A DNA stretch of 64,000 nt from Amoebophrya sp. A120 (GCA_905178155.1 CAJINV010000005.1:8471591-8535590); one strand, 5' to 3'; counted from the stretch's first letter, positions 13,618 to 39,007 are shown. Notes: a model not told the origin generated them from the letters alone. Numbers and translations: made by a program.

Positions 13618-13625
13618 TGCCGCCG

Positions 13626-14050
13626 GCCTGGGCAGGTGACCTGCCTCTGACCTGGGCAGGTGACCTGCCCCCGACCTGGGCAGGTGACCTGCCTCTGACC
13701 TGGGCAGGTGACCTGCGCCTGCTCTAGGCAGGTGACCTGCCCCTGCTCTGGGCAGGTGACCTGCCTCCGCTCTGGGCAGGTGACCTGCATCTGACCGGGG
13801 CAGGTGACCTGCCTCTGACCTGGGCAGGTGACCTGCCTCCGACCTGGGCACGTGATCTGCCTCCGACCTGGGCAGGTGACCTCCTGCCTCCGACCTGGGC
13901 AGGTGACCTCCTGCCTCTGACCTGGGCAGGTGACCTGCCTCCGACCTGGGCAGGTGACCTGCACCCGACCTGGGCAGTTGACCTGCCTCCGACCTGGGCA
14001 GGTGACCTGCTCCCGGACCTGTGACAGGTACCTGTGACAGGTACCTGCTG
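13626..14050. repeat. Tandem array of 24-mer GACCTGGGCAGGTGACCTGCCTCY (~16 copies) with internal palindrome GGCAGGT-G-ACCTGCC
   Basis: 24-bp period visible; it generates the spurious GRRQVTCP-repeat ORFs. Confidence 0.95.
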
Positions 14051-15349
14051 CCGGACCTGTGCAGGCGGGTTGCGCAGGTATCTGCGCAGATCCCTGCTCT
14101 CGGATCTGTGCAAATACCTGCACAGCTCCCTGCACATGCATCAGTCGCGTGATGTAACTTCCAGGTTGCAGTCATCGCTAGGTGGTTCTAGGTTGGGCGG
14201 AATTGACCAATGTGCATTTTCCACCCATGGAAGACAGAAACTCGCCCTCGTTATTATCGCAAGCACAATAGAGAAGTTGAACAGGAGAACGAACAAGAAG
14301 ATCGTAGATCGGTATAACAGGTTTTACACGACCGTATTGCGCGGCTTTGTTTATAATCTATTTCGAATATGTGTTTCACAGGTGAAAATTGAATGTACAA
14401 CTACAGCAGATCGCTTCAACGACAACTATGATTCATTTCTTCAGGTTTTCTTGTACAAAACAAAAGAATAGACCAAAGCAGATTGTTTGATTTTTCTTGA
14501 AAAAACGTATGGTATCACGACCTTCTAACTTCGAATGCAATTGTATACCCGCAACTAGACCATCTCTACGCACCAGCTTTACTCGCTTGTGGTTCAGCGC
14601 CAGAGTATGGAGGACGGCACCAGAGGAAACAAGTATCGCCTGTGCGAGTACTAGTTTAGTAACGATCTTCGCGTGACTTATTTTACAACTATTCTGTACG
14701 ATTTCTGTTTCTCTTCAGACTAGGATCCCGATGTAAAAGTAGAGAAGCGCACCAGCGGCTTGCTTCCAGGCACATCAAGCTCCTGAGAATACCAGAAGGA
14801 GAACAAGATATTGCGGTGTCTGCGGCAGCCAGATTCAACGACACGGACTCTACAAAGGATTTTTGAAATTTGAGAACAATTCATTGAATTCACAAAGCAC
14901 CGTATCTTCAGAATTCTGCGCCTTTTTCCTTTCTATAAATCGCGTTCGCGCATAGGCAGGTGGAGCGACAGCTCCTTTCGTACTGGAGTACCATCTAGTG
15001 GACAAGAGAAATTAACGCCTCGTGGTCATCGTGTCTTGATCGCCGCTCGTTTATTTCTCTTTCGAAATCTGTATGTCTCGTTATCGTTTATCGTCGTTTC
15101 CCTCGCTCGATGTTGATCGTTATGTCGTTTCTCTTTGTCGTCCAATAAGGCCGTTCTGATTTTCTCGTCAACGCTCGCTTTGGGAGTAAAAATTGAGCTG
15201 TAATATTTTTGGTTTCTGCAGTCACACAAATGCCGAGAAAAAAAAAATACGGTAGAAAAAATCAAAAAGCACCTAGAAAAAATCAAACCGGGCTCCCACT
15301 GTAGAAAAACCCTGTCGGGTGCTTTGAGAAAAATCGAGAAGAAAGCAAG

Positions 15350-17945: not shown

Positions 17946-18502
17946 ATGCCCAATTCCCCCTGCAAGGCCGAGAACTTCTCCCTCGGCATCGAAGTGCCGA
18001 AGTTGAAGAAGCCGAGTAAGGAACCGTTGGTGCCCACCGAGAAGGTCGCGGGGTTCTTCCTGCAATTCAAGGAGTCCCTGCCGAAAAAGCTCGAGATTCC
18101 GGAGGAGAAAGACCTCCAGAAGGGACTGCAGAGCGGTAGAATGGTTTTTGTTATACAACTTTGAGTATGAAAAAAAAAGATAATGTAGTTTGACGACTTC
18201 ATGCTTGTCATGATGAAAATAATGTTGAGTAGGAAGGAGAAAGCAAAACTGCATCCTCTCTTACAGTGCCGGTCCCGAACTTTACGAAGTTTAATGTGGA
18301 AGCGCACAAGAAGATGGTCGAAAAACAGGAAGAGGAACGCGCGCAGCACAACAAGAAGTTCGTCGAGGCGCAGCGCGCGGCGGCGTTGAAGCCGGTGCAG
18401 CAACCGGTGTGCGCGTCCGCGCGCACCCCCTGGACACCCCGAGTACCAGCCGGTTTACGCATAGGAACAACGAAAAGGCGATCGAGGACCAAGAAGCGCT
18501 AG
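17946..18502 (+). pseudogene. Chimeric or truncated paralog of the 19898 gene, fused out of frame to a copy of the 3' end of gene 1498
   Basis: GT-AG intron 18136-18266 at the same position as in 19898; homology to 19898 stops at ...KPVQQPV (~18409), then the sequence switches to a copy of 4038 onward. Confidence 0.65.
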
Positions 18503-19535
18503 ACGCGGCGCTGCCCGCGCCGGACCGCAGTACGAGATCAATCGGCGGGAACGCCGCGAGGGTGGGGTCGGTCACGGTGACGGGATCAACATCTTCTGCA
18601 AATGAACAGGATAATGCAAATGAGCAAAGCAGGAATGCTAGCGGTACGAGTCGGGCAAGTCGTAGAAGTTCCAAAAGCAAGAGGAATTTTGCTGAACTAA
18701 ATCTAGAAGAAACAGCGGCGCTGTTAGGCGAGGACGACACCAGCAGCCCAGAAAGAAATTCAGTGTCGAGAAAGGGAAAGGGGAAGGGCAAGAAAGGAAC
18801 GTGAACGAAAAGACAATAAACTTGAAAACTTCTTTCGCGTGCCTGTATGATGAAACAAGATTAACTGTTGTGTTTCGAATGCTTGCAGGATGTGCCGCCA
18901 CAAAAAACCGTGTGGTCAGTAAAGTTTCCAAGAAGAAGAATTATTTTAGTACTTTTTTAGTACAACAGCTCCTGCAAAAGTTTGCCTGAAGCTCTATCAC
19001 GAACTACACTCATCTGTCTTGTTCCAGAACGGAAGGCAGCGATCTTCTTCCTCTTCTGGGGTTTTAGATATAATTACAATCGTGGTACGACGTATGCACC
19101 GTAGAAACCGTATTAGCCCGTTCATACTCATAACTCGTAAATTTCGATGAGTCGCATGATTTGTCGTTGAGAGATAGGGCTGCATGCTCAGTCCCTTAGT
19201 CTCTCGGGTGTGCTGTCGAAAATCGTATCAGCATGACTCTCGTACGAATAGAGACGGGATCGAATGAATAAAATCGTGTTTCGTGTCTTATTTCAATTTG
19301 TCGCTGAGAGAGGGTCGTGCTCGTGGTCGCAACGTCGATGAGCCATCGTGTTTTGCCTCTTCGAGCTTTATTTTCGCTTCGTGTTCGTATCTCGGAAATC
19401 GAAATCGTCAGATGTGAATCTTCCGAATACACAAAGACTGTTGCAACGTGTCTCAGAAAGAAATACCGATTTCTCCGTAGGCGTTCTAGTTGTGCCAGTA
19501 AATAAGAAGTTTCGCGTAGGCGTTCTAGTTGTGTA
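18413..19535 (+). repeat. Diverged duplicate of ~4038-5095 (last exon and downstream region of gene 1498)
   Basis: Near-identical translation RAHPLDTPSTSRF...KGKGKKGT* and colinear 3' flank with indels. Confidence 0.9.
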
Positions 19536-19897: not shown

Positions 19898-20712
19898 ATG
19901 CCGAATACCCCGTCCAAAACGGAGATGCCGTCGCTGGGCCTCACCATGCCGCAATTTCGGGTCCCGTCGAAGGAGTTTCTCGTGCCGGATGAGAAGGTGG
20001 AACTGCTGACGAAAAAAGGCCTAAACGCCTTCAAACAGTCCTTGCCGAAGGGCATCGAAATTCCGGACGAAGAAAATCCGCACAAGGGTGTGTCCAGCGG
20101 TAGGAATTATATTATCTGATGTGTAAATTATTTATTTATATCAAATGTTTGTTGAGAATCTTCTCGATCTCGACCTCCTACCTTGATTTTGCTTTTTTCA
20201 CGTGAGGAGATACACGTAAGGAGAAAGCAAAACTGCATCTTCTATTACAGTGCCGTTTCCCAAATTCACGGAGTTCGACATCGAGGCGCACAAGAAGATG
20301 GTCGAAAAACAGGAAGAGGAACGCGCGCAGCACAACAAGAAGTTCGTCGAGGCGCAGCGCGCGGCGGCGTTGAAGCCGGTGCAGCAACCGGTGCAGCCGG
20401 AGGGCTCGGTGTACACCGGTCCGTCGGCGTTTTTCCCGTGCAATCCGAAGCTCGGTCTGGCCCAGTACATCGTGAAAACCGAATTGCAGAAACTGGTGGA
20501 CTATCCCTTGCAAAAGTATCGTCCTAGTAGAAATCCAAATCGCGTTGAAAATTCGGTCAGCATATATGGAATTTGTGATGCTGATTTCACTTCACAACTA
20601 GATTTGTACATACGAGTGCGATCCTTTTGCAATGCATATCGATGGTTCCGACGCGTCCTCGGACGTGAAACTGCAATTGCAGGAGATCATGGAGAAGGTC
20701 GCGAAAATCTGA
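19898..20712 (+). CDS. Hypothetical protein, MP(Q/N)(S/T)P family, 3 exons
   Basis: GT-AG intron 20100-20250; introner 20502-20638 (KLVD|GSDASSDVKLQLQEIMEKVAKI*). Confidence 0.8.
20502..20638. mobile_element. Introner family B
   Basis: DR tggac/tcgat. Confidence 0.88.
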
Positions 20713-21832
20713 TGAGGTTCTTGGTTTCAGGAATGAGTAGAACGAAGCTTCGGCTTCGTTTTATGGGAACTAGGGCTTTATTCACACCTTCGACATCCAC
20801 GAACAGCATGAGTTTCAGTGCGCATCAAATGATAGATTTTATTACTAGCAACCAGGAATGTTTGAGCGAGTTATGAGCAGATTGTGACAGTGAATTGACC
20901 TGTACGCTCTTGTTCTTTCTAGTGCGTTTAGAATGTGAATCTTCGTTTTTTGTAAACAATGAATTCAAAATCAAAAATATGGGAAAACTCTTCTAGATCT
21001 ACGTACCTAGCCGCACGTATTCAGCAGTTGGGTTTCCGATTGAAATCTGTACAGAAGCAAAAAAATCAAGGCACTACAATCAAAATTAATTTCAGTATTC
21101 TCCTTCAGACATTTTATTAGAGCCAGCTATGTATCGCTACGAAAAGGAAAAGAATAAAGAAAAACAATACAAAAATTGGACGCTCACTGTACATCTAAGA
21201 ACGTTGATGGATAAAGTCCCGCGCTTTCAGCATCGCCGCCGCTTTTTCAACGTGGAGCGTAATCGTTAGATTCTTGAAAGACAAACGGATAGGAAAAAAC
21301 TTTATCTCAATGATGTTGCTGGGCATGATGCGCACAGCATAGCACGCCCTACAACTTGTGAAGATGAAGGGTGTTTTAGTGTGCCGACCGTGTTTGTTTT
21401 TCCATGGTACCAGGAAGGCGAAGGTCGGTCATGGGTTTCTGTCTCCTGGGTAGCTACAAGTCGTGTTTTTTTCTTTTCGTCATTGGGGGAACTGAAATTG
21501 CAGAGCAAATGGGCGGTCCATGAGGATTTCAAAATCGTGTATGTGCTTTCGAAAACTACAGGCAAGGTAGCAAATACATTCGTCGTTTTACTCGTTCTTG
21601 ACGACGAAACAAAAGCAGGCACCCCTCATCTTTTCGCGACCCCCACCAAACACGCCTCTTAAACCCCCATAAAACTCCCTTTGTTTCTTTTCGCTTGACC
21701 TCGAAATGTAAGTGAGCAGGAGCCTCCTGTGAAGCTGAAACAAAATTCCGAATCAAGTCGCGTAACGTAAAAAGCTGTACGTCTTGTTGCATAAACCGTT
21801 GCTTTTTCAAGACAGAAAAGCCAAAGTCAACA

Positions 21833-22462
21833 ATGCTCCGTGACAAGTACCCCGCCCCCCGACGCGGCGCCCGGCCGCAAACTGGCACTTGTTTGCCCCA
21901 CTGCCAAATGACGGAAGAATCCTCCGAGGCGATATTCAAGGAATTCGTGGAAAGAGCGACAGAGATGCTGCAGGGAAACGACAAGGACGCGCTCGACTAC
22001 TGTGTCGAAGTGGGCCCAACGGGGATCAGCGTCCCGTCTACTTTCCCGGCGTTTCACTGGAATTCACGGACGATGAGGCCAGCAGGTAAAGACGGTGGCA
22101 TGAACACGATGAACACCAGGAATTGTTTTATGGTCGGTACCGAGTTCGCGCACATCCACGCGAAGTACTTTGAAAAAGATCCATTAAGAAGCGCAAAACA
22201 AGACACCCGAGAGCGAGACCGCCCCTGGCAGGTGTGGCAAGGCGGGGGGTTAGGATCAATGCATTTGACGCTGGATCTCCAAGACGCGGAGGAGCTGAAC
22301 CGCCTTGGGTGGACTGAATTCCATCTGCTAGCCGCGCAGAAGCACCCGGGAGTGCCGGCGGGGTTGGTGCTGGTTTACGCACCAAGGAATGAGGAGGAGA
22401 TTGAGGTTTGTTTGAAGATTTTACAAGCAAGTTTGGATTTCGTGGTAGCGCATTTTAGATAA
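21833..22462 (+). CDS. DUF5519 / fungal-luciferase-like family protein, intronless, copy 1
   Basis: Family motifs PxRxGxRP, PHxQ, EFAHIH, GSMHLxL, GWxExHxLA and VYAPRNEEEIEV..KILQAS. Confidence 0.85.
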   Translation: MLRDKYPAPRRGARPQTGTCLPHCQMTEESSEAIFKEFVERATEMLQGNDKDALDYCVEVGPTGISVPSTFPAFHWNSRTMRPAGKDGGMNTMNTRNCFMVGTEFAHIHAKYFEKDPLRSAKQDTRERDRPWQVWQGGGLGSMHLTLDLQDAEELNRLGWTEFHLLAAQKHPGVPAGLVLVYAPRNEEEIEVCLKILQASLDFVVAHFR

Positions 22463-22994
22463 AGATTTTAGGATCGAGTTTATTGAGGCTAAAAACGGTG
22501 GAAAAGAAAGGAACCAGCTGAACTCAACTTGTCTTCACCGCCTTTAGCTGCTGCTGCTGTAGTGCGCAGGTCTGTACGGTTCGGCTATGACTTGTGCACG
22601 AGTAGTGCAAGAACCCGTGTTCATCTTTTGTGGTGTGGCCACGTGGCCAGGTCGTCTCGTTTCGATGCGTTTCGTCTACAGGACAGGAAAGACTTCTGAA
22701 TCTGAGTTCAACAATGTTGATTCAGACGAGCGGAGAGGCAGGATAAAATGTTGAGTCAATCGAGCGAAAAACAGTTCTGTCGTATTCGTCGTGATAATAT
22801 GGAGGTTTGCACAGCTAGCGTCTCGTCGTTCGAGCGAAAGCTGAAGTTCCTCCACTATGATCGTAGGAACTTCTTCTACGCGTATATGAATGAAATTGAA
22901 AAGTAACTACTAGTAGTACTAGTACACACGACACCATCCAGCATACTACTGTGAAGAGCAACAGCACATCAAAAGAACACATCCCGAAAACAAA

Positions 22995-23585
22995 ATGGCG
23001 CCGAAAAAGAAGAGAGACAAGAATGGCGCCGAGGAAAAAGTAAAGCCGTCCTTCACCACCTTCGTTCGGCTACACGGGACTCTCGACGGTGATTCTGAAA
23101 ACTTGTCAATCAAAGAATCACGGGAAGAGTCTCTTGATGGAGGACGAAGCACGAGTAAATCCAGGTCAAAATCTCCGTCGCCGAAAAAGCACACGAAAAA
23201 GGCGAATTCGGTATCCACTGCATGAAGGCGCAGCGCGCGGCGCGCGGCGGCGTTGAAGCCGGTGCAGCAACCGGTGCAGCCGGAGGGCTCGGTCTACCCC
23301 GGTCCGTCGGCGTTTTTCCTGTGCAATCCGAAGCTCGGTCTGGCCCAGTACATCGTGAAAACCGAATTGCAGAAACTGGTGGACTATCCCTTGCAAAAGT
23401 ATCGTCCTAGTAGAAATCCAAATCGCGTTGAAAATTCGGTCAGCATATATGGAATTTGTGATGCTGATTTCACTTCACATACATACGAGTGCGATCCTTT
23501 TGCAATGCATATCGATGGTTCCGACGCATCCTCGGAGATGAAAGTGAAGCTCTTGGAGATTATGGAGAAGGTCGCGAAAATCTGA
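22995..23585 (+). pseudogene. Chimeric junction: 5' 72 codons of the 25842 gene, an introner stub, then the 3' part of the 19898 gene
   Basis: MAPKKKRDKNG...KANS, then TATCCACTGCATG (23212-23224), then a copy of 20350 onward. Confidence 0.7.
23385..23511. mobile_element. Introner family B (duplicate of 20502)
   Basis: DR tggac/tcgat; 10-bp internal deletion. Confidence 0.88.
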
Positions 23586-24698
23586 TGAGGCTGGTTTCAG
23601 GAGTGAGTAGAACGAAGCTTCGGCTTCGTTTTATGGGAACTAGGGCTTTCTTCACACCTTCGACATCCAAGAACAGCAAGAGTTTCAGCAAGTATTAAAT
23701 GGGAGACTTTATTACTAGCAACCAGGAATGTTTGAGCGAGTTATGAGCAGACTGTAACAGTGAATTGACCTGTACGCTCTTGTTCTTTCTAGTGCGTTTA
23801 GAATGTGAATCTTCGTTTTTTGTAAACAATCAATTCAAAATCAGAGATATAGCAAAACTTGTTCTAGATTTACATCCACCTAGCCTCGCGTATTCAGCAG
23901 TTGAGTTTTCTATTCGAAACTGTACAGAAGCAAAAAAATCAAGGCACTACAATCAAAATTAATTTCAGTATTCTTCTTCAGACAGTTTGTTATCTTATGG
24001 CCAGCTATGTATCGCTACGAAAAGAATAGAGAAAAACAATACAAAAATTGGACGCTCACTGTACATCTAAGAACGTTGATGGATATAGTCCCGCGCTTTC
24101 AGCATCACCGCCGCTTTTTCAACGCCGAGCGTATACTTAGATTCTTGAATGACAAACGGATAGGAAAAAACTTTATCTCAACGATGTTGCTGGGCATCAA
24201 GTGCGCGCAGCACAGCACCAACTACTTGTGAAGTTGAAGAGTGTTGTAGCGAGCCGACCGTGGTTGTTTGTGTGTATCAGGAAGAGAAGGTCGGCCATGT
24301 GTTTCTGTCTCGCGGGCACCACACCTACAAGTCGTGTTTTTTTCTTTTTGTCATCGGGGAAACTGAAATTCTCGGGAGCAAATGGGCGGTCAACGAGGAT
24401 TTCAAAGTCGTGCACAAGCACGTCGTGTTTTCGAAAACTACAGGCAAAGTACAAATCGCATTCGTATTCGTTCTTGAGGAAAAGCAGGCACCCCTCACCT
24501 TTTCGCGTCCCCCACCAAACACGCCTCTCAAACCACCATAAAACTCCTTTTGTTTCTTTTCGCCTGACCTCGAATTGGATAGTGAGGATGAGCTTATGTT
24601 GAGATTAAAAATTGTTCCGAAACAATTGCAACGCAAAAAGCTGTACGTCTTGTTGCGTCAACCCGTTTTTTTTCAAGACAGAAAAGGCCAAGTCAACA

Positions 24699-25319
24699 AT
24701 GCTCCGCGACAACTACCCCGCCCCGCGACCCGGCGCCCGGCCGCAAACCGGCACGTGCTTGCCCCACTGCCAGATGACCGAGGAATCCTCCGAGGTGATA
24801 TTCAAACAGTTTGTGGAAAAAGCGACAGAGATGCTGCAGGGAAAGAACGACAAGGAAACGCTTGATTACTGTGTCGAAGTGGGCCCAACGGGGATCAGCG
24901 TTCCTTCGACCTACCCTGCTTTTCACTGGAATCCGAAGACAATGAAACCAGCTAAAACCGGTGGCATGATGATGAGCACCAGAGATTGCTTCATGGTCGG
25001 TACCGAGTTCGCGCACATCCACGCCAAGTACTTTGAAAAAGATCCATTAAATGCAAAACAAAGGGGCCCAGTAGACCGCCCCTGGCAGGTGTGGCAAGGC
25101 GGGGGGTTAGGCTCGATGCACTTGACGCTGGATCTCCAAGATGCGGAGGAGCTGAACCGCCTCGGGTGGACAGAATTCCATCTTTTATCCGCGCAGAAGC
25201 ACCCGGGAGTGCCGCCGGGGTTGGTGCTGGTTTACGCACCAAGGAATGAGGAAGAGATTGAGGTCTGTCTGAAAATCTTAAAAGCGAGTTTGGATTTTGT
25301 GGTAGCGCATTTTCGATGA
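24699..25319 (+). CDS. DUF5519 / fungal-luciferase-like family protein, intronless, copy 2
   Basis: Same motifs as copy 1; intact frame with in-frame indels. Confidence 0.85.
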   Translation: MLRDNYPAPRPGARPQTGTCLPHCQMTEESSEVIFKQFVEKATEMLQGKNDKETLDYCVEVGPTGISVPSTYPAFHWNPKTMKPAKTGGMMMSTRDCFMVGTEFAHIHAKYFEKDPLNAKQRGPVDRPWQVWQGGGLGSMHLTLDLQDAEELNRLGWTEFHLLSAQKHPGVPPGLVLVYAPRNEEEIEVCLKILKASLDFVVAHFR

Positions 25320-25841
25320 GATTTTAGGATCGAGTTTGAGGCTAAGAACGGTGGAAAAGAAAGGAACCAGGTGAACTCAACTTGGTTTCACCCTTTAGCT
25401 GCTGCTGCTGTAGTTCGCAGGTCTGTCCGGTGCAGCTACGACTTGTGCACGAATAGTGCAAGAACCCGTGTTCAACATCTTCCGTGGTGTGGTCACGTGG
25501 CCATGTCGTCTCGTTTCGATGCATTTTGTCTAGAGGACAGGATAGACTTCTGAATCTGAGTTCAACGATGTTGATTTAGACGAGCGGAGAGAAAGGAAAA
25601 GACTTTGAGTCAATCGAGCGAAGAATAGAACAGTTGTCGTATTCGTCGTGATATAGAGGTTTGCATATCTAGTGTCTCGTCGTTCGAGCGAAAGCTGAAG
25701 TTCGTCTCCTATGATCGTAGAAACTTCTACGCGTATATGAATGAAAAGTAACTACTAGTAGTACTAGTACATCACACGACACCAGCATACTACTGTGAAG
25801 AGCAACAGGACATCAAAAGAACAAATCTCGAAAAAAACAAA

Positions 25842-28800
25842 ATGGCGCCGAAAAAGAAGAAAGACAAGAATGGCGCCGAGGAAAAAGTGAAGCCGTCCTT
25901 CACTACCTTCGTTCGCCTGCACGGGACCCTTGATGGCGATTCTGAAAATTTGTCGATCAAAGAATCACGCGAAGAGTCTCTTGATGGAGGACGAAGCACG
26001 AGTAAATCCAGGTCAAAATCTCCGTCGCCAAAGAAGCACACCAGCAAGGCTAATTCAGACGGGACGTACGATGTTGACCCCGAAGATGGTCGTAGGAGAA
26101 GCAGGAGCCGGAGCCGCTCCAACTCTCCGTCCAAATCCCCCAAACCACCACCCCCGAGAGGTCGGAAGCGAAGAAAATCCTCCATCGACAAACGAGAAGA
26201 CAGCATCATGCTGTTTCAGCACAAGATGCAAGATGACTACGTCAAAGCACTTCGGAGGGTATGAACTGCAAAAGTATCGTACTCGTAGTATCGCAATACA
26301 AATTTAGCTCAGCATGAGAAATGGAATTTCTCATGCTGATTTAGCTTGAAAAAAAAATTTGTCTTGCATGATTGCAATCACTACGAGTGCGATCATACTT
26401 TTGCACAGGATAGAGGGAAAACCTTTCCTACGTCGCCCAAGCGATATCGCCGATCCGGATTGCGAAGGAGGTGGCGAGCGGTGTGGCGAAGCGGATCAGT
26501 CCGGCGAAGAAACCGGCGTTTTTGGTGTCGAAGGAACAAGAGACGGAATCGAGTCAAAAACAGCGAGCGTTTGAAACGCTGGAACAATCAGCTGATAAAA
26601 AGAATAAAATCATCCCGCTCAGTAATTGGGCACCGGGGTCGACTAACAGTAGTTGGACCAGTGGCGCGTCGTATTCCACGACACAATCTGACGGGAACTA
26701 CACGGGAACAGGTGCAGGAGCCACTTCTAGTAGTAAACCAAAAAATAAACAGCAACCTTTTCTCTTCGCGCCAGAAGACGGAGACTACGGTCCGGACGAC
26801 CCAGTGAAGCAATCGACGCGGGAGAGCTTTTACCAACGCAGTCAAATGAGCAATGATCACGTCGTCAACATCCCGCCGCCGACGGAGGACGATAAGATTC
26901 TCTACCCGAATGAGACGGTGCAACAAAGGTACAGACGGCTGCAGAAGCAGGAATTGGATGAGATGTACATGAGCAGGAACGAGTACGACAGTTCACAACT
27001 CCCCCTCCTCCTCATTTGTTTTGCATGGACAGCAATACAAACACCCGCACCTATGAAGCCTGTGCATGACAAGTTCACACTCGTATTGTAGTTACTGTTT
27101 GGGCTTGCGGACGAATCTGTCATGCGAACAGTACCACAGTGCAGCGCTTGGACTTGGTATTTATGCATGACAAACGAGGGGGAGGGGGAGTTGTACGCTC
27201 TCATAACGAGAAGAAGATCCGGGAACTGGAGAAGCACGAGATAGCGACGAAGATCAAGTGGAACAAACAGAAAATAGAGGAAGATTCCAAGGAAGTCGAA
27301 GAGGACGAGAACCGGAGAGAACGAAGACGGATGAGGCTCGTGGCAAAATCCTCCGTCCCGGTAGCGAACTTGCCGCGGGAGCTGTCCGAGCTAGTGCAGG
27401 TTCGGGAACGGAACAATCCAAAAAACGGGGACGAGACGCTGATTAAAACACTGAAGAAATTCGGGATCAAAGATGCGAGATTAAAGTTGTCGCAATACAA
27501 GACGGCGTTATTGAGGTACTGATGATGTAGTTTTTTGACTTTGGTATAGTTTGTCGTGCACAATTTGCATCATCGGCTGTGTGTGTCATGCTCATCTGTA
27601 CATCACGCAGCAAACACTTTCATAGGTACACGCAATGGAAATCCCCCGTCTGCCCTCCCGACCCGATTTACAAAGCTAATGCAACCGAACGGCAAAACCT
27701 GGCTGGGGAAGTGCACGGCTCCGGATTAGTAACGATCAATAAGGACTTCGACGACGCCTTGGAGCACAAGCGACAGATGTACGTGAAAGATAAATTAGAA
27801 GCGAACTCCCCACTAGACAACCTCTCCACGCTATCGTAAGAAAAAACTGTTTCACTGTAAGGATTTTGCAAGTTTTGCATTACAAGTTCGCTACACATTA
27901 CAAAGAAAACTTGCCATGCAAGGATCCTAACGGAAAACACCACTAAAAATCATTTGTCTTGCATGTGTAGCAAGACAAACACTTCAGTGAGATGCATTTT
28001 CTGCGTCACAAGTTCACAGCGAAGCAGTTTTTTCTTGCGATACACGCCGGGAGACCATCATTCTGACACGGTGTCCGTGATCAGTTCCAAAGCGATGTTG
28101 GACCAAGTAGCAGCGGAGAACGAAACGCTGAATCCTTTGACAAGGGTGAAACACCCGGAGGAGGAGAAAAGACTAGCAAGGGAGCGGGAGAGGCTGAAAA
28201 AAGAAAAGCAAAGAGATCAGCAGTACTTGGAAGCTTATCGGGAGGAGAAGCGGATGCAGGGAGAATCGTCGACCGAAAATCCTTATGCATTGCAAAAGTG
28301 TGAACGTTTCTTGCAGCACTTTGCATGACAGGTCTGTTCTTTTTACGTGAATCCGCATCACAGATCTCATTTTTCATTTTGGAAAGATTTGTCATGCAAT
28401 CTACACTACTGGTACAACTGCGATACGCATACCGATACTTTTGCAATGCATACTCCCAATCTGGGTATCTTCACCAAGGAGGAACCAAAAGTCCGCTTTG
28501 CCGATGGAGTCAACCCCGGGGAAGATGAGAATTTTGATCTAAAATTCACGGGAAATAAGAGATCCGTGCGGGGGAAGGTGTTTGCCAAAGCGGTTGACAA
28601 AAAAGCAGAGTACCCCGCGCAGTTTTCACCGCAGAAAGGAGGGACCAAGCCGAGCGGGGCTTTGCGGAGTCAGAAAAGTTTGGACAACAGTGACTTAGAT
28701 GAGGAGGAACTTCCGGAAGAGGAGAATGATCCCCACTACGACCCGTGTTTGTCTCCAACGCAGAAACTAGACGTGGATAAACTGTACTATGCCGTTCTCA

Positions 28801-31800
28801 GACGTTACATTCTCAACAGTAATGCATGAATCTGTGATGCAAAGTAACCATAATCCACCACAAAATCAAGCTACCTCGCATGACAAGTTACCGAAGGGCC
28901 ACACAGCATCTGAATCTGCGTCATCAAGTTTGTGATGCGAGAGCTGCAAGCTTGCCCCTTTCACTGCCGCTGGTCTTGCATTACAAATTCATGCAACAGC
29001 AGCTGCTGGGAGTGTAACGTTTGGGAATCCCATATGTACCGGATGGACTCGATGGAACAACTACAGCAGCAGATCGGGTTGCAAATGAACCAGAGAAACA
29101 AAGGACCGAAGTTCTCGTTATTCAACGCGAGCTTCAAGTTCAAGGAGTTCCTAGCGCCCGTGGAAGATAACGGCCTGGACCCGAGAGTGACACGGAAAAA
29201 ACCACTCCCGCTCTATCCTGTGCAAAAGTATCGTACTCGTAGTAATTTCAATCATGCATTACAAATCTTTTCCTCAAGGTGAATCTGCATTACAAATTCA
29301 ATTTCTCATGCTGAAAAAATTTGTATTGCAATACTACGAGTACGATACTTTTGCAGAGCATACGCTCTTGATTCGGCCGCTCTTCGTGGGGATCTATGCC
29401 ATGATCGCCGGCATCTACTTCTGCACGGTGCCGCTGCGATATGAAAGTGCACAATTCCCCCTCCCCCTCGTTTGTCATGCAAGATCTCAAATCCAGCTGC
29501 TGCCCTGTAGCACTGTTTGCATCACAAATTCTGCAAGTCCAAACAGTACCACACGAGGCGCATGAATTTGTCATGCATAGGCTCCATGTGTGCTGATGTC
29601 TGTATTGCTGCTTATGCCATACAAATGAGGGGGAGGGGGGGTTGTGCACTGTCATATGCGAGAGGCCGAACAGGCGGGGAGGCACTTCTGGCAGTGGACC
29701 AACGCAAACTGCTATGCAAGAAAAAAACTGTGTAGGTGTTGTAAGTCTGTCATGCAAAGCATGCAACACAGCTGCGCCTGTCATGCTGGTCAGCCATGAA
29801 GTCCTCTTTTCATATCTGTTTTCATGTGGGAGCTGCGCATGGCAGGCTTTCTCTGTCATGCACAGCAAATTTGTCATGCTCTCACCCCAAGAATAAACCT
29901 AAAGCTAAACCAATACACTTTTTTGTCGGGATAATTGCCGGATCTGGAGGTTTACCGACATATGCTCGGTTTGCGCTTTGAAATCCGACGGGGGCGCGGA
30001 GCGGTGCGGGGTTAGTGACGTCGCGCGGTACAGTAACGGGTGTCAGTTCGACATTCTAATCCGGTATGATAGTGACGGCGGGGAAGAAGACTCGCAGGTG
30101 GCCGAGGGCAATTGGTATCCCGAGTACGAATGGGACGGGAAAGAATACGATTTAGCGCCCAGGGAATACTTCAACCAGTGTCCGGGCGGGAAAGGTATAG
30201 ATTTTTTACGTTTAGTTAATTTCACGTTTTTGAGGATGCATGACAAGCAGGCTGTCTCTTGTACGATTTCGCATGACAAATCCAAATCAAAACAGCCACC
30301 TCCCCCGCCTCTCTCCGCCTTCCCCGCGCGGAGATGGAAAAACTCGAAAACTGCTGCATCTACCACAACCCCACCACCGATCTGTTCTGCGACATGTGGT
30401 CCTACGGGAACACCAAAGGCTCCTGGCCTTGCCGGGTGGCGGAGGGGGACATCTTACCGGCAACCACCACCGAGCGCCCCAGGTTTGCCCAGGTCTGGAT
30501 CTTCGGCCACAACCAGTCCGAGTGGTGGACCTACGCGGGGCTGTGCTTCGCGCTGATGTTGGTCTTGTGGAAATTTTGGCTGTGGCCGCTTTGGATTTAC
30601 CAGCTATGCATTGCAAACGTATCGTACTAGTATAAATCACATGACAAATTTACTCAGCATGAGAAATAAATTTTGTAATGCGGACTGAACTTGAGAAAAA
30701 AACTTGCAATGCAGGAATGCGATTACTACAAGTGCGGTACTTTTACACTGGATACCAGCGGTACGAAGACAAAAGGTTGGAGCAGAGGAGGGAGTTAGAG
30801 GAGATGAAAAGGAGAACGGGGAAAGGGTTCTTTGATAAAGCAACGGGCAAATTCGTCACCTTCGATCCGAACGAGTATTACGAAGAGCAGGAGAATAGCA
30901 GTGGTTACGGCTACGGCGGGTCGTCCCCTGCCCTGTACTACGCGGAACCCCCTTCTGTCTCCGAAGATTTCGATAGTGAAGACATCAAGCCCAGAAGTAA
31001 ACCTTCCAACTACCATATCCACTGCAAGTATGTCTGGGTCTGGACGGTTGCGAGATTTGTCATGCTTGTCTCCCATGACGCTGGGCTTTGTGTTGCGTGG
31101 CTACGAACAGCTCCGCTTGCCTGTTATGCAAAAACGCTGTTTCTCATGCGGAAAAGGCAACACAGAGCGACGGAAAAGCCTGTCATGCTTGGCGGTGCAT
31201 CACAGAGGGCTATACTATTCACTGGCTTACATCAGAACCTTCCAGACCACCCAGACGTATTTGCAATGCATATACCACAATAAAATGCTGAAAGCTTCGA
31301 TGAAGGGCTTGCTGTCACCGAAGAGATATCCTGTGCAAAAGTATCGTACTCGTAGTAATTCTTGCAGTCATGCATTACAAATCTCTTCGTTAGGGTAAAT
31401 CCGCATTACAAATCTAATTTCTCATACTGAGAAAATTTTTGTTGCATTTCTACGAGTACGATACTTTTGCAATTCATAAGAGAAGGCCGAACAAGGATGG
31501 AGAGATAGTGGAAATTAGTCTGGAAAACCAAGTCCCTGCGCGGTCTCTGAACAACCCAGACACCACCTTTGCCTATGACTCCGCACGGAACCCGTTCCGC
31601 GTGGCGTATGCATTGCAAAAGTATCGCACCAGTGGAAATTGCATTACAAATTGGCTCAGCATTACATGATATGCGAAGTTTGTCATGCTGTCTCAGTTTC
31701 GGAGCGAGATTTGTCATGCGCGTCAGCAATTAGTACGAGTACGATACTTTTGCAAGGCATATGGCGCACAATGAGACGATCGGCGGTGTTAACGAGATAA

Positions 31801-34555
31801 TAGATCCACGGTACCCCGAGGGGCAGCGACCCGGGAGCAGAGGGCAGAACCTCGGGAATAAGCCGGTGAGGATGACGCGAGCAGATATATCGAATGCAAA
31901 ATGTTGACATCGTACTCCTCGTAGACTCATCGCAGTACAGCATGACAGATCTAGTTTCTTAGCTAGTTCAGCATTACAAATTCCATTTTTCGTTGTGGAA
32001 AAATTTGTGATGCTATTTCTACGTAGTGCGACCTTTTTGCACTGCATAAGACAGGATGATGGACAAATTCCGCTTGTTGAAGTCCAAAGTTTCCGACCAT
32101 CTCTTCCACCAGCCCGGGAAAATCGCGAACCAGTCACAGCAGGACGTAATAACCGCGCAGGAGAGAAACATTGAAAGAATGCAGTTCGACGGGGACGACT
32201 ATTACTCGCAGACCGCGATAAGACTCGCCGGGGTTCCGCCACCGTTGTACTTGCAGGGGAAATTCATAGAAGACGTCGGAGGAGGACCTGCTGCTTCGAA
32301 AAAAGAGGTGGATAATAGCAACATTCTCATCACAGCAGAAAACAACAACATCGACGCAAAAGGCGGACGGAACCGAAAGACCAGTAAAGACCGCGGCCGA
32401 TCCCAAGAAAACAAAAACCTCTCGCACATGAGGAAAGCGAACAAAAACGAGCATTTGGTGCCACTTATGCATTGCAAAAGCATCGTACTAGTATAAATTG
32501 CATTACAAGTTGACGTAGCATTACAAATTGAATTTGTATTGCGGATTTGCCTGAACAAAAAGATTTGTAATGCATAAACGCAATTAGTACGAGTACGATG
32601 CTTCTGCACAGGATACCGCTACCGGGTGGGTTTCAGGAACAGAGAAGCACAATAATCCGGATATGCTGTGCAAAAGTATCGTACTCGTATAAATGCAGGT
32701 CTTGCATTACAAATTTCTTTGTCAAGGCAAATCAGCATTACAAATTTTCTTTCTCATGCTGAGGAAATTTGTAATGCATTTATACGAGTACGATACTTTT
32801 GCACAGCATACCGGATGCAGGATAGCAAGGACACTATTGGGCGATCAAATGTGTACGATAACGCGCCGGTCGTGGAGACCAGAGGAGATCAAGCGAGGAG
32901 TGCCGAGGAACAGGAAGACTCCTTATGCATTGCAAAAGTATAATGTTCCTCGCGCTAGTAGAAATCGTTTCACCAATTTGATTAGCATGGAAAATGGAAT
33001 TTGTTGTGCGTGTTAGTGTACAAAGGTGATCATCTCTCATGCCTGATTGCCATTAGTACGAGTGCGATACTTTTGCGATCCATACTCCTTCGAATTCTAC
33101 AATGACGTCGATGCGACGTTTCAGCACGTGCGGAAAGGTATCAAATGCAAATAGGTCTGGGTCTGGAAACTTGTGATGCTGGCCGGAAAATCTTGAGGAC
33201 GTCCCAAGTGGTGGCCCTCGCATGACAAGTTTTTGAGCTGCTAGGTGTTGCGTGTTCAGCATGGCAACCTGTGTTTCCGCATGACAGAAAACTGGGACGC
33301 TTGGCTAACGCGCATGACAGACTTGAGAGTCATGCTGGCCGAGCATGACAAAGTCTGCACTCTTCCAGACGCAGAGAGATTTGCAATGCATAAAAGGAAG
33401 CAGCTCCTCTTCTAGCTCCTCGGCACGACACCAAGATACAGTCTCTTACCCCGCCAGCCAGTTTCTTGGACGAAACAAGACGCAGTTCCACCCGGGGCCA
33501 GACGCGCCAGTCTACGACCAGCCCCACATGTTCTCGCAGGACAGCTCGCAAGGCGTGTCGACAAGTACAACCGCTGGTAATCTTCATGCGAGAATCAATC
33601 CCGCGTCCATGCTCGGACCTAACGGCGGTTCCACTTCCACGTCCTCCCGCGCCACAAGGGTCGGGGTCTTTGGCAACCCGGGACCTGGACCCGCGTATTA
33701 CGACGTTGGCGGGGTGAAAGAGGAGGTGATTCTAGGCTCGGAAATGGTGAAGAAGAACTGGACGCATTCGGAACTCCGGGCGAAATCACCCTTGAAAAGG
33801 CGCATCGAGGCGTGCGGAGATAATGTGTTGGGGGAGAACGAATTATATCACAGGAAAAAGTGTTAACGTTAACGGAATTTGTGATGCAACAATGCATCGC
33901 AAAACGTGCCAGAATTTGTCGTGCATAGCATGCGTATTGGACTACATTTGTGATGCATGACTGTAATCTGTGAAAACCGTTAACGTATAACGCTTTTTCT
34001 TGTGATAGATTAAGGAAGATGTTCAAGAAAGCAAAAGCGAAAAACAAGCTGCAAACTGCGGAAGAGAAGTTTTGGCCGAAGCCAGGGGCTACAATACAGA
34101 ACACCAGTGCTAATAATTCTGCGAACCGCAGTCGGGCAAACAGTAAAGACAGTGCGTTTTCATCCTCCGGGAATAGCTCGGATGAAGGAGGGGGTAATGG
34201 TCCCCTGTTTTCCCGAAACAGCTCGAAAGTTTTACCAAGGATCCAGGAGAACGAGGAGTTATTTCCGTATGGAGGAGGAGGCGGGTTCGGTGCTGGTAGC
34301 GTCGAGGAAGAGAATTCGTCCATGGTGTTTCCACCAAATAATAACATCAGCGCACAGCATAACCATAACAATTCAACTTCATCTGTGCTGTCGCAATCCG
34401 AGGAAGATGAACAAACCTGGAACAAATACGTGGAGAACGGACTAGTCGTCGCAAAGGCGAAACCAAAAGCAAAGCAGCGGTACAAAATGCCCGCGGCGGC
34501 TACGAAAATGCAGACGCGGAACGCTGGTGGGGGATTGAATTCAGGGTTTTTGTAA
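25842..34555 (+). CDS. Large hypothetical protein with two TM helices around a Cys-rich loop, 21 exons
   Basis: 18 introners and GT-AG introns 27516-27625 and 30195-30295; all 20 joins stay in frame (e.g. LRR|ENLSY, ANC|RIWRF, EDS|FEFYN, NEL|RKMFK). TM1 PLFVGIYAMIAGIYFCTV, TM2 WWTYAGLCFALMLVLWKFWLW. Confidence 0.85.
26260..26412. mobile_element. Introner family B
   Basis: DR gaggg/gaggg. Confidence 0.95.
26984..27205. mobile_element. Introner family C
   Basis: DR acgag/acgag; left end TAC. Confidence 0.92.
27832..28042. mobile_element. Introner family D (TIR TATCGnAAGAAAAAACTGTTTCACTGT)
   Basis: DR cacgc/cacgc. Confidence 0.95.
28284..28452. mobile_element. Introner family B
   Basis: DR atcct/ctccc. 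Confidence 0.88.
28788..29034. mobile_element. Introner family I
   Basis: DR tgtac/tgtac. Confidence 0.92.
29214..29362. mobile_element. Introner family B
   Basis: DR cgctc/cgctc. Confidence 0.95.
29440..29656. mobile_element. Introner family C
   Basis: DR tgcga/tgcga. Confidence 0.95.
29713..29933. mobile_element. Introner group G (heterogeneous, TATnnnAnGAAAAA ends)
   Basis: DR actgc/attgc. Confidence 0.88.
30605..30754. mobile_element. Introner family B
   Basis: DR ccagc/ccagc. Confidence 0.95.
31016..31272. mobile_element. Introner family A
   Basis: DR tacca/tacca. Confidence 0.95.
31327..31478. mobile_element. Introner family B
   Basis: DR agaga/agaga. Confidence 0.95.
31607..31761. 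mobile_element. Introner family B
   Basis: DR tggcg/tggcg. Confidence 0.95.
31888..32048. mobile_element. Introner family B (degenerate)
   Basis: DR agata/agaca. Confidence 0.9.
32466..32615. mobile_element. Introner family B
   Basis: DR ccact/ccgct. Confidence 0.93.
32662..32810. mobile_element. Introner family B
   Basis: DR ccgga/ccgga. Confidence 0.95.
32924..33084. mobile_element. Introner family B
   Basis: DR ctcct/ctcct; empty site in the paralog at ~36676. Confidence 0.97.
33139..33392. mobile_element. Introner family A
   Basis: DR aaagg/aaagg; empty site in the paralog at ~36725. Confidence 0.97.
33846..34007. mobile_element. Introner group G
   Basis: DR aatta/gatta; TIR TATCACAnGAAAAAGnGTTA. 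Confidence 0.92.
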
Positions 34556-35458
34556 AAAGATATTTCTTTACGTTTACGATCTGTGGAACAGCTGCGAATT
34601 ATGCTGGTTTCAATTTTGACAATAAAGAACTTCTCTTTATTCAGTTTCAACAAATAGTTCACTGCCGTGATTTGACTTCCGTTTCCGTTTCAGAACTTGA
34701 ATCGCTGGATTATCTTGCAGGCACCGGCGGATGCTGGCTCTCTTCTAGCTGCACCGAAGCCGCCCAAGAGCGCTTGCTCGACACTGGTGGTGATTCTGAT
34801 TGTGAGGACCGATCTAAACATCAGTTCTTGAGAGAAGAAGTATTTCAATCAAATTTGAACTACAGGCGTAGAAGGGTAAGTTAGAAGTAGCTTCTTCCAC
34901 AGCAGCATCGTCGTGAAGATGCGTGTGTTCTTCGCGTTCGAACGCCCAACGAAGATTTTGTTGCTCTCTGTGGTGACACTGCCGCTTGTTTGTGCTCTTT
35001 TTTTTGTTCTGGCCCATTGTATCGTGACGGAGATCTTGTTGATCTTCACGGTCGCCCCCCGCAAGGATGATCAGGAGACGGAAACAATGGATCCTCCAAC
35101 CTACTTTCTACTTGTATGTAGAGAATGAAGACGAAAAGCAGGAGCATCTTCCTAGGTAGCTACTTAGTTGCTATCGCAGGTACTACAAACCATGTCCTTT
35201 ATTTGAAAAGGATTGGAATGATTTCATTTATGCATATGCACTAAAAAAGGCGGGTAGTATAGTTGCAAACGTCGATCCGGTTCTTGTTCCCATGTTGCCC
35301 GATCATCTCTTTTCCAACATAAATTTGATTTTCACGAAGAAAATTCTTCCCTTTTTCGAACAAACCACCATGTCTTGGAAGGACGCGTTTGGCCTGGCGC
35401 AGAAAGTGGTTAGTACGAGCCCCGACGTGTGCCAAGTAACGGTGAAAAACGCGACAGA

Positions 35459-35677
35459 TATGAGAGTGTACAACTCCCGCTCCCCCTCATTTGTCATGCA
35501 AAATTCCAAATCCACCCTCAGCCTGTTAGTAGTGTTTGCATGACAGATTCCGGAATCCAAAACAGCACTACAATCCTCTATGAATTTGCCATGCGAATAA
35601 AGCTGCATCTTTGCCAGCGCTTGTGTTGCTGTTCATGCAACACAAATGAGGGGGAGGAGGAGTTGTGCAGTCTCATA
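35459..35677. mobile_element. Introner family C
   Basis: DR acaga/acaga. Confidence 0.95.
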
Positions 35678-35729
35678 ACAGAAGAGTACCGTTTAAAAGT
35701 GAAGTCCTACAATCGGCACGACGCGGTTG

Positions 35730-35991
35730 TATCAATTGCAAATATGTCTGGGTCTGGAAGGCGGCAACTTGTCATGGTAAATCTGAAGCATGCAAAAATC
35801 TGTGTTGCCTGAGTGCCAAAAGCTGTCCACTTTTGACCAAGTTGGAAGGGAGTTTCTCATGCAGGATAGACATGATAGGGATCTCACAGAAACTGTCATG
35901 CTAGGTCCTGCACTCCAGACGACATGGATCATATAAAAATCTGCATGACAAGTTTACAATTTTCCAGACCAAGACATTTTTGCAGTGCATA
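35730..35991. mobile_element. Introner family A
   Basis: DR ggttg/ggttg. Confidence 0.95.
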
Positions 35992-36220
35992 GGTTGGGTT
36001 GTGGCACCACGCGGAGATGCAGTTAAAACCGGGGCAGTCTGACGGAAAAGGCAACACAGAGAGACGGAAAAGCCTGTCATGCTTGGCGGTGCATCACAGA
36101 GTACTATACTATTCACTGACTTGCATCACAACCTTCCAGACCACCCAGACGTATTTGCAATGCATATACCACAAGAAAATGCTGAAAGCGTCGATGAAGG
36201 GCTTGCTGTCACCAGAGAGA

Positions 36221-36375
36221 TATCCTGTGCAAAAGTATCGTACTCGTAGTAATTGTTCTTGCAGTCATGCATTACAAATTTTTTTCTTAATGTAAATCCA
36301 CATGACAAATTTTATTTCTCATGCTGAGGGAATTCGTCATGCATTTATACGAGTGCGATACTTGTGCAATGCATA
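36221..36375. mobile_element. Introner family B (same site as 31327)
   Basis: DR agaga/agaga. Confidence 0.93.
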
Positions 36376-36462
36376 AGAGAAGGCAGAACAAGGATGGAGA
36401 AAATGAGGAAATTAGTCTGGAAAACCAAGTCGCCGCACGGTCTCTGAACAACCCGGACACCA

Positions 36463-36559
36463 TATGCATTGCAAATATGTCCTCTGGGTCTGGAAGGTTG
36501 GAACTTGTAATGCTAGCTTTCCATACCTAGGAAACCTGTATTGCGTAAGCAACAAAAGT
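36463..36559. mobile_element. Truncated family A introner (left part only)
   Basis: Left TIR after cacca; the site is empty at 31561; right part lost at a deletion junction. Confidence 0.8.
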
Positions 36560-36859
36560 CGGATGCAGGATAGCAAGGACACTATTGGGCGGTCGAATGT
36601 GTACGACAACGCACCGGTCATGGACCAAGCCAGAGAAGATGATCGACAAGCGAGGAGTGCCGAGGAACAGGAAGACTCCTTCGAATTCTACAACGACGTG
36701 GATGCCACGTTTCAGCACGTACGCAAAGGGAGCAGCTCCTCTTCTAGCTCCTTCGCACGACAAGATACGGTCTCTTACCCCGCCAGCCAGTTTCTCGGGC
36801 GGAACAAGACGCAGTTTCACCCGGGACCCGACGCCCCGGTGTACGACCAACCCCACATG

Positions 36860-37124
36860 TATCAAATGTAAAAATGTCTGGGTCTGGACGAATGCAACTT
36901 GTCATGATAAATCTGAAGCATGAAAAAATCTGTGTTGCATGATTACCAAAAGTCGTCCAGTTTTGACCAAGTCGGGAGGGATTTTCTCATGCAGGATAGG
37001 CTGGCATGAGAGAGATCGCACAGAATCTGTCATGCTGTGTCCTGCATTCCAGACCTCATGGGTCATGGAAAATCTGCATGACAAGTTTACAATTTTCCAG
37101 ACCAAGACACTTTTGCAGTGCATA
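36860..37124. mobile_element. Chimeric family A introner
   Basis: Flanks acatg and ggttg come from two different genes. Confidence 0.88.
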
Positions 37125-37494
37125 GGTTGGGTTGTGGCACCACGCGGAGATGGAGTTGAAGCCGGGGCAGGAGTCTAGCCAATTCTCATAGGATTGCGCA
37201 TGACAGGTTCCGGAGCATCAAACCCCACTACAATCTGGCGAAATTTGTATTGCAGAAAGTGGAACGCTCTGCGAGTCTGTCATGCTCATCATGCAAGACA
37301 AATCTCAGATTCTATTGTATCGGATGTGATTTCCGCGACCGATGGGTTGTTTATGGCCATGAAGCAGTGTACCTCGATTCAGCTACAGGTTTGCGTGGAC
37401 CGGAATGCATTGTCGTATTATATATGATGACGATGGAACAAGACGAAAGAAGCCGGCTCGTTCCTGCGTCTGGCACAGCAACGCGCGGAACGAC

Positions 37495-37755
37495 TATCAA
37501 ATGGAAAAATGTCTGGGTCTGGAAGAATGCAACCTGTCACGCTAAATCTGAAGCATGCAAAAATCTGTGTTGCATGAGTGCCAAAAGCTGTCCACTTTCG
37601 ACCAAGTTGGGAGGGAGTTTCTCATGCAGGATAGGCATGAGAGAGACCTCACAGACTCTGTCATCCTAGGTCCCGCATTCCAGACCTCAAGGGTCATGGA
37701 AAATCTGCATGACAAGTTTACACTCTTCCAGACCCAGACACTTTTACAATCCATA
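37495..37755. mobile_element. Introner family A
   Basis: DR acgac/acgac. Confidence 0.95.
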
Positions 37756-39007
37756 ACGACAAAACGTACACCATTTCCGAGCGGTTTGAGGTGGATTCTG
37801 ATTCTTGGTGGCCATCTGCGCGTGCGGGCAAGGGTAGTTCGGCCGAGCTTGAAGTTGTTGGATCATGAGAAACATGTGATAATGAACGAACTCCTTGCGA
37901 AGAAAGCGATTTGATGTTTAGCTTAGCCCGCCTTCGTACAGAGAGAAATGTCCTGTTCTTGAAGCGCTGTTTTTCATCATAAAAATGAAAATTATGAACT
38001 CCCTAGTAAATAATCTGCAGCCGAAGGGAGAACGCGAAGAACACAACTTACATGACAAAGTTTTTTACCTCTTGGTGGAGGTCACAAGAGCATCATGTTG
38101 CTACCTGGATGAAACCGAATTCTGTGTCTGGAGTTCCTGTGCTAGGGTCGCAAGTTTACTGGACAGCATCATCATGATAATGTCGGTCAAACTTACTAGT
38201 CGATTTTCACGAAGCTGCGTAGAGGTAGAAATATACAAAAAAAGGTTCTCCACCACTATCATTCGGTTAATATGATCGTGGCGTGATCTTCCCATTCATA
38301 TCTGATTCGGTTTGGTTTTTCATCGAAGAAGAAATTTATGCAGCAGCAGATTCTCGGTGACGGTGTGGTCGCTCTTCGCTTACTTCGGTGTGAATGAAGA
38401 TGTCTGCTTACTGCTTTATTTGTCCTCTCGGTTATTTTTCATCCGGATGTTAGGTGGATGCTTCGGTCGACCACACGGTCTGTGTGGAAATTCCACGCAG
38501 CGCAGTGCTGCTGTTGCCGCATGTCGCTGCTACTCGGGTAGTCTGTTTGATGTCCTAAGGACCACCTCCAAGAAGGGACGGAAAATGCAGTGGCAAATAC
38601 TTATGCGGCGATTGAAGATGTGCCATGGCCCAGACGTTTTGTACATTCATTAAGCAGCAGCTTGCCATGGAAATCTATTTTTGTATTTCTTCCTCGATTA
38701 TGTAGGATTCATCATCTTCGTACATTTTTACAACTTTTTTCGCCCTCCATTGATTCGCTAAAGACGGGCCTTTGTTGATAGGATGTGATTGGCCCTGGCG
38801 GCCAGCGGCTGGTCCCTGAGTTACAACTCCCAGCACAAGATGATTTTAAAGCACGGACGAGGAAATTGTGCCGCGGGGCAGTACTACATCGGTAGTAGAA
38901 GACCATTACAACACGGAAGGATATTGAACGACAAATCCGAGGATGTTATGGAGATCTCCTCCCTGTTTGTCCCGCCACGGAAGATAATCGCGAGCAGGCG
39001 GGGTTTC

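Follow-up and report, generated by a model that had tools for sequence, protein, structure and literature searches.

A hybrid introner spliced from a two-gene transcript probably arose by recombination at a likely nested gene block of Amoebophrya sp. A120

The locus and its introners

We analysed a 64,000-nt stretch of the Amoebophrya sp. A120 genome (GCA_905178155.1 CAJINV010000005.1:8471591-8535590), here called the window, in which one introner, at 36860-37124, carries the flank of one gene on its left and that of another on its right. In the main text of the study that described them, A120 introners have inverted ends of TAT, 7 nt and AAA, short flank repeats and many families, and are spliced; 29,850 repeated introns are given for the genome (Farhat et al. 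2021, PMC7789003). The window contains 59 or more elements, 123-358 bp long, each bounded by TAT…ATA inverted ends and, outside these, by flank repeats of 5 bp. Their inverted ends consist of TAT, 7 variable nt and a run of A, a direct repeat of 3-5 nt stands at their boundaries, and they form families of repeated elements that are spliced from mRNA; judged by these features, they are the known A120 introners. After two boundary corrections, the flank repeats matched at 5/5 positions in 38 elements, 4/5 in 14, 3/5 in 6 and 2/5 in 36860-37124 alone. Elements cover 0.20 of the window, 0.31 of 23226-36042 and 0.57 of 31016-33531.

The genes concerned, all on the plus strand, are labelled C (19898), D (21833 and 24699), A (25842) and B (35370). 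Upstream lie an outer version of gene C (19898-20710, repeated from 20350 onwards at 23226), an intact outer gene D with a PF17648 luciferase domain (21833-22462) and a 5' piece of an outer gene A (22995-23225), in which 72 codons without a stop run on for 4 codons through an introner stub to an in-frame TGA. An inner block follows (23226-36044) that comprises the 3' part of C, D, the whole of A and the 5' part of B; it is a long-diverged homologue of the outer block, likely nested in outer gene A, and has single-copy DNA depth. Inner gene D (24699-25319) is intact, as is inner gene A (25842-34555), which is introner-rich and spliced and gave no Pfam match at gathering score in the five exon pieces scanned. 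The outer 3' part of gene B (37125-37870) is spliced out of frame to a gene A piece; a search for homologues of this piece found none, and no intact copy of gene B is apparent in the window. A family-2 introner at 31016-31272 recurs as its right half at 36043-36166, and another, in inner gene B (35730-35991), has an outer-version counterpart that would have given the right end of the hybrid. Two introners at 32924-33392 (32924-33084 and 33139-33392) are present in inner gene A only, the outer piece being precisely without both and keeping one flank repeat.

A hybrid introner is removed from a two-gene transcript

Consistent with a composite origin, we found that the left flank of 36860-37124 (junction J4), ACATG, is that of gene A at position 33531, and the right flank, GGTTG, that of gene B at position 35992, as an initial annotation of this DNA had proposed. 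The element is identical to 35730 at 177 of 213 positions in its first four fifths and at 52 of 53 in its last fifth (Fisher p 0.003). No such rise was seen with control element 37495 over the same two parts (186/212 and 47/53, p 1.0) or in a reversed control with 42384 (195/214 and 42/54), to which the left part of the hybrid is closer than to 35730. The mosaic indicates two source elements: one gave the left flank, left end and left interior, the other the right end with its flank, and the change-over falls in an identical tract of 23 bp; the crossover likely lies at about 37069-37091. Its left parent would have been an element in gene A. Deletion of DNA adjacent to a whole element was also considered for J4 and is ruled out by the mosaic. 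J4 alone among the junctions described here joins same-family repeats, in the same orientation and in register, with a mosaic product, and so likely carries the signature of crossover or annealing between direct repeats of one subfamily. For this element, the earlier suggestion of ectopic recombination between introners is thus borne out. The associated deletion removed about 2.2 kb, as measured on the inner map: the last part of gene A and the first part of gene B.

The nearest-related family-2 elements of the window (35730, 36860, 37495 and 42384) lie within 7 kb and are 82-88% identical, compared with a median of 61% over all pairs. Their closeness suggests local hopping, which would favour nearby crossovers.

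The hybrid is still spliced. The RNA evidence consists of assembled contigs from three runs of a single sample. The splice joint 36857->37128 is present in 3/3 runs, with a short side of 121-127 letters, so that exons of genes A and B are joined in one transcript. The skip measures 270 nt, 5 more than the element, and the ordinary element 37495 shows the same excess (266 = 261 + 5); the flanks have only TG in common, yet the element is removed. The hybrid folds back through its inverted ends of about 30 bp (z -6.3) and leaves as element plus 5 nt with no flank repeat required, whereas a remnant without ends at 37174-37319 (z -1.4) is retained in the listed contigs. Five elements with imperfect flanks (23385, 28284, 31888, 32466 and 33846) allow one common splice register, which the hybrid fits. 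If a single register holds for all elements, as assumed in this reasoning from imperfect flank repeats and the ends of RNA contig pieces, the intron starts 1 nt upstream of TAT and ends 4 nt downstream of ATA, and 4 bases of the left repeat are kept.

The initial annotation had proposed that a hybrid retaining both terminal inverted repeats (TIRs) would go on splicing and could shuffle exons. Splicing and the joining of exons from two genes held in RNA; the A-to-B fusion gives no support to productive shuffling, being out of frame and stopping after 9 codons. A composite joint that skips the whole insert, 35729->37130, is not among the joints listed, and its product in silico stops in the 37174 remnant. 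In Pack-MULEs, a TIR pair and a target repeat surround captured gene pieces and behave as one unit. GGTTG stands on both sides of 35730-37124, but the listed RNA contigs splice its parts separately, and the pieces keep genomic order and single-copy depth, which argues against such a unit.

Two long-diverged versions of the gene block

Self-comparison aligned 20352-23209 with 23235-26056 (87% identity), 31149-31565 with 36043-36462 (90%) and 32812-33531 with 36560-36860 in three pieces (88-91%), the gaps being introners 32924 and 33139; 35728-36037 also aligns to 36858-37170. These alignments placed all five junctions of the initial annotation (J0 to J4) where it had put them. Its implicit framing of the junctions as the origin of the duplicates proved untenable. 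Between the broken A and B pieces and their intact or partner versions, we counted 49 synonymous and 16 non-synonymous changes in 230 codons, a synonymous divergence (dS) of 0.42 and a non-synonymous divergence (dN) of 0.03, with no stops and with indels in frame. The ratio of 0.07 differs from the 0.5 expected if one copy had been dead from birth (p 2e-10). The intact gene D pair diverged to the same level (dS 0.44, dN 0.06). The low ratio and the lack of stops imply that both versions worked through almost all of their divergence and that the junctions are much younger. Substitution patterns thus show two versions of a block C-D-A-B, each under purifying selection for nearly all of that divergence and each with private introners.

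The outer gene A pieces (25842-26058 and 31149 onwards in inner coordinates) are complementary and do not overlap, as expected of pieces from one gene. The simplest layout is likely outer C, D and A 5', then inner C 3', D, A and B 5', then outer A 3' and B 3', a diverged block having been nested and then trimmed. On this layout the J1 stub, 36463, the left part of 36860 and remnant 37174, none of which has a counterpart at its site in the intact genes, would be insertions private to the outer version, in the way that 32924 and 33139 belong to the inner one alone. In the aligned parts, 4 introners are shared, 2 are inner-only and 4 outer-only. Only two close gene D proteins occur among 5 matches, the non-self ones being 42-48% identical.

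The initial annotation had missed both remnant 37174-37319 and the fact that copy 36560-36859 is precisely without 32924 and 33139. A cDNA origin of that copy was rejected: the neighbouring piece keeps an introner, and the fragment stops short of the previous exon. Its divergence (dS 0.47, dN 0.025) fits presence and absence between versions. The orthologous elements 31327-31478 and 36221-36375 are identical over their first 44 aligned bases and 19% different beyond, and for each right part the best match is element 45785 (74/85), a hint of conversion within the family.

Junctions other than the hybrid

At J0 (18409-18413, plus strand), an exon of paralogue C' runs out of frame into a diverged copy of gene X (4038-5099), with no element on either side; the initial annotation had likewise set this junction (18410) apart. 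At J1 (23212-23222, plus strand), homology to gene 25842 stops at 23211 and the 11-bp introner end TATCCACTGCA follows at a site empty in intact gene A. This TIR stub scores 16.3 bits in a matrix of 79 element ends (median 15.3), a value reached at 0 of 46,670 non-element positions; its random chance is 2e-6, with the caveat that 2 of the 79 training ends are identical to it. J1 comprises a 14-bp filler with the stub at its start, and the break lies 11-14 bp inside the element end. A left-TIR stub at the junction of the 2.85-kb duplication, as first described, is thus corroborated.

Two further observations of the initial annotation, entry into mid-element at 36043 and a deletion near 36559 that starts inside an element, also proved accurate. 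J2 (36043-36044, plus strand) joins a gene B exon to a copy of element 31016-31272 at element base ~134, with a 2-bp microhomology (CG). The resulting transcribed chimeric open reading frame (35370-36532, plus strand; 169 aa from the ATG at 35370, 195 aa as annotated, P0001) consists of gene B 5' exons, 41 codons of exonised half-introner, in-frame gene A exons and 22 codons of truncated introner, and an annotated Amoebophrya sp. A120 protein is 100% identical to the translation of 35993-36220. Since 30 of 108 comparable element frames are open and phases match one time in three, this frame needs no selection. At J3 (36559/36560), the left ~97 bp of a family-2 introner (36463-36560), at a site empty in inner gene A, are joined 1-2 bp past the right end of element 32662-32810 on the inner map, and a copy of 32812 onwards follows. 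Microhomology at J2 and J3 is 1-2 bp only. Finally, the remnant at 37174-37319 (J5/J6) is the interior of another introner family. Compared with whole members in two loci of a related assembly (L059 and L069), it is missing ~75 bp at its left end and ~35 bp at its right end, with no loss of exon sequence, and it carries a stop in the gene B frame.

J0, J1, J2 and J3 have unique exon sequence on one or both sides, unlike products of homologous recombination. Ac-type junctions lie flush with an intact element end at a new target, but the breaks at J1, J2 and on the left of J3 are internal to elements.

Possible hybrids in a related assembly

The same introner families occur at 162 or more loci (266 kb) of a related public assembly, with best matches of 80-92%. 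Flanks of 138 paired family-2 elements there matched at 5/5 positions in 119, 4/5 in 13, 3/5 in 4, 2/5 in 1 and 0/5 in 1. Of 20 unpaired ends, 13 had a partner and flank repeat after all and 7 belonged to truncated elements; the 156 family-2 elements scored include these 7 and 2 with internal insertions (L053 and L055). The 0/5 element (L073:561-826) is at most a candidate hybrid. In this sample, which is biased towards intact ends, hybrids make up at most about 1% of such elements, a ceiling that, given 29,850 repeated introns, still allows for possibly many.

A proposed history and its alternatives

We consider it probable, with considerable room for doubt, that hybrid 36860-37124 arose by crossover or single-strand annealing between related introners of genes A and B during the recent nesting and trimming of two long-diverged, working block versions. 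A 12.8-kb piece of one version (23226-36044) would have come to lie inside gene A of the other, J1 and J2 being its ends, by two unequal exchanges or template switches; it may have come from a diverged haplotype or from what was once a paralogous locus. What remained of outer A and B, now stranded, would then have lost DNA by microhomology joins at J3, J5 and J6 and one homology-driven deletion at J4. Palindromic ends could be prone to break, and the breaks at J1, J5, J6 and the right of J3, all at termini or close to them, hint weakly at this. As for the coding outcomes, J4 and J1 each lead to an early stop, and J2 leaves the frame open.

Several points weigh against this history. With each junction counted as two sides, the probability of at least 4 of 5 junctions lying in elements is 0.21 at the local cover of 0.31 and 0.064 at the window-wide cover; 2/6 sides lie within 14 bp of an element end (p 0.10), and J0 has no element. 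In the related assembly, just 1 of 138 elements is at 0/5 and 1 of 138 at 2/5. The first 290 bp after J1 differ from outer gene C at just 3 sites, so that conversion or an extra template switch is needed. The RNA evidence comes from one sample and from contigs only. At J2 a single DNA contig, of 327 bp, is listed; to the left of the junction it carries 134 letters of other sequence instead of 35992-36042, and its length would suit an origin at 31016 followed by a copy switch in a 39-bp identical tract. No outgroup locus was found: among the 162 or more loci of the related assembly none is orthologous, of 7 weak matches outside elements none falls in 18-38 kb, and the gene D matches include no near relative that would polarise the two versions. 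The main text of PMC7789003 infers a low rearrangement rate for Amoebophrya.

It is possible, though we favour it less, that introners were bystanders at every junction except J4 and that ordinary microhomology joins simply land in them, given that they make up as much as half of these genes. Because elements cover 20-57% of the DNA, the count of four junctions in five is not significant; the initial annotation had the placements right, but the count carries little weight as evidence (p 0.06-0.21). The minimal microhomology at J2 and J3 suits this possibility, as does the placing of J0 and of J1's right side within one 45-bp stretch of element-free exon. Harder to square with bystanders are the stub, which begins just where homology stops and lies in 5.7 kb of DNA with an element cover of 0.046, the position of the right side of J3 (2% of positions lie so near a terminus) and the loss of both ends of remnant 37174 with exons spared. 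Causation is pointed to only by the in-register crossover at J4 and, more weakly, by breaks at element ends; most other nearby breakpoints could lie in introners by chance.

A similar, limited chance attaches to an old, full tandem duplication, both copies working, that deletion and translocation rearranged afterwards, without any contribution from a diverged haplotype. It also predicts a low dN/dS, accounts for J1 by a simple deletion that starts in gene A of copy 1 and ends in gene C of copy 2, and has a parallel in the other diverged gene X copy at 18413 (16 synonymous and 3 non-synonymous differences). It needs an extra move, however, to bring the outer pieces of A (3') and B to a position downstream from inner gene B, and self-comparison revealed no leftover second B 3' or C 5' part downstream.

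Transposase-driven junctions, through alternative transposition, adjacent deletion or abortive excision, are unlikely. Left ends at 23212, 36463 and 36860 occupy sites empty in the intact gene, breaks at J3 and J5 are at or beside termini, and A120 introners are partly ascribed to TIR DNA transposons in a section of PMC12130899. Yet J1 breaks well inside the end, J2 and the left of J3 are mid-element, and the left four fifths of the hybrid are no closer to 35730 than to other subfamily members, contrary to one end attacking a new site. Private elements are to be expected in any case, as the same exons of the intact gene contain two, and the main text of PMC7789003 reports putative transposases in A25 only. 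A clean signature of aberrant transposition, which the initial annotation had also suggested, was seen at no junction.

Simple tandem duplications born at 23212 and 36043, with truncated copies then decaying, suit the geometry of two tandem units, but predict a dN/dS of ~0.5 or more and a decayed frame; the observed ratio and the absence of any stop or frameshift in 230 codons contradict them, and we give them hardly any credence.

Assembler jumps at repeats, which the initial annotation held to be the main alternative, are least probable of all and can practically be set aside. Copies made by an assembler would be near-identical; these are 87-90% identical, and their 10-13% of differences, mostly at synonymous sites, speaks against an artefact. 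The read-depth check that had been proposed came out as single-copy, at 41.6-47.9 on 8/8 listed contigs of DNA run X1, which cover both versions and a flank. Run X3, from a second sample, is RNA because its contigs skip introners; its contig 22903-23269 bridges J1 with 0 differences. Contigs of this second sample covering 35992-36215 bridge J2 in 3/3 RNA runs, again with 0 differences, and the splice joint spans J4. At J3, contigs of X3 and X6 (36501-36589, 59+30 letters, RNA) and of X1 (36515-36589, 45+30, DNA) extend 30 letters right of the junction, one short of our bridging rule. On the other side stand the restriction of the read evidence to contigs, the one listed DNA contig at J2, which appears to switch copies, and J0, which has no bridging contig among those listed.

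Relation to known systems

The elements studied here share organism, inverted ends, flank repeats, families and splicing with the introners of PMC7789003. The main text of that paper never mentions recombination and infers little rearrangement, whereas here one element is a recombinant, spliced without a flank repeat. Chimeric genes made by repeats are also known, as in the passages of Yang et al. 2008 (PMC2211543) in which crossover in dispersed repeats joins parts of different genes. In the present case the repeat is a whole intron with splice signals at both ends, so that the scar removes itself, and the phase of the fusion is set by two insertion sites. Ectopic exchange between Alu elements in introns likewise makes chimeric genes.

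In maize, TIR elements lie at duplication, deletion and chimeric-gene junctions of linked paralogues through reversed-ends transposition of Ac, as covered in parts of PMC1592236 and PMC3744419; the junctions here, by contrast, do not show an intact end abutting a new target. Solo-LTR (long terminal repeat) introners, treated in a portion of PMC12130899, resemble the hybrid in being products of ectopic recombination that still act as introns. A solo LTR forms inside a single element, whose flanks and host gene stay as they were, whereas the hybrid arose between two elements in two genes, with the intervening DNA deleted. In the openly available literature on introners with recombination, exon shuffling, fusion or conversion, supplements excluded, we found no report of hybrid introners joining two genes. 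Repeat-mediated exon shuffling as such is already known; for introners, no report of it came up in the same literature.

Tentatively, introners may act as self-erasing recombination cassettes, in which any two same-subfamily copies of about 30,000 could cross over and the junction be spliced at a fixed register without a flank repeat, with about a third of fusions in frame; the locus would then record recent mixing of lineages at a dS of about 0.4. If true, such cassettes would help to explain fast protein turnover in Amoebophrya. That intron-generating transposons do more than add introns has hitherto been speculation; here one natural recombinant is present in DNA and spliced in RNA. Introner-mediated exon shuffling becomes countable, as elements with unrelated flanks checked against RNA, and, for the splicing of non-canonical introns, the 5-bp flank repeat appears unnecessary for removal. 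The nested diverged block offers a within-genome record of introner gain and loss and may reflect hybridisation.

Further features of the window

Paralogue C' (17946-18409) encodes an exon 1 protein 48% identical to that of 19898-20393, yet its last ~115 bp before J0 are identical in DNA. Together with the near-identical 290 bp after J1, this suggests recent gene conversion or template switching around the exon. Gene X (4028-5099) has its second, diverged copy at 18413-19502, with the frame intact and only the first codons missing; given this copy, the mosaic of diverged versions may extend further than the region studied. Tandem arrays lie at 13180-14035 (10-bp unit) and 15300-17450 (GC-rich, degenerate), and a further diverged repeat pair, 50558-50870 and 58410-59233, is 83% identical.

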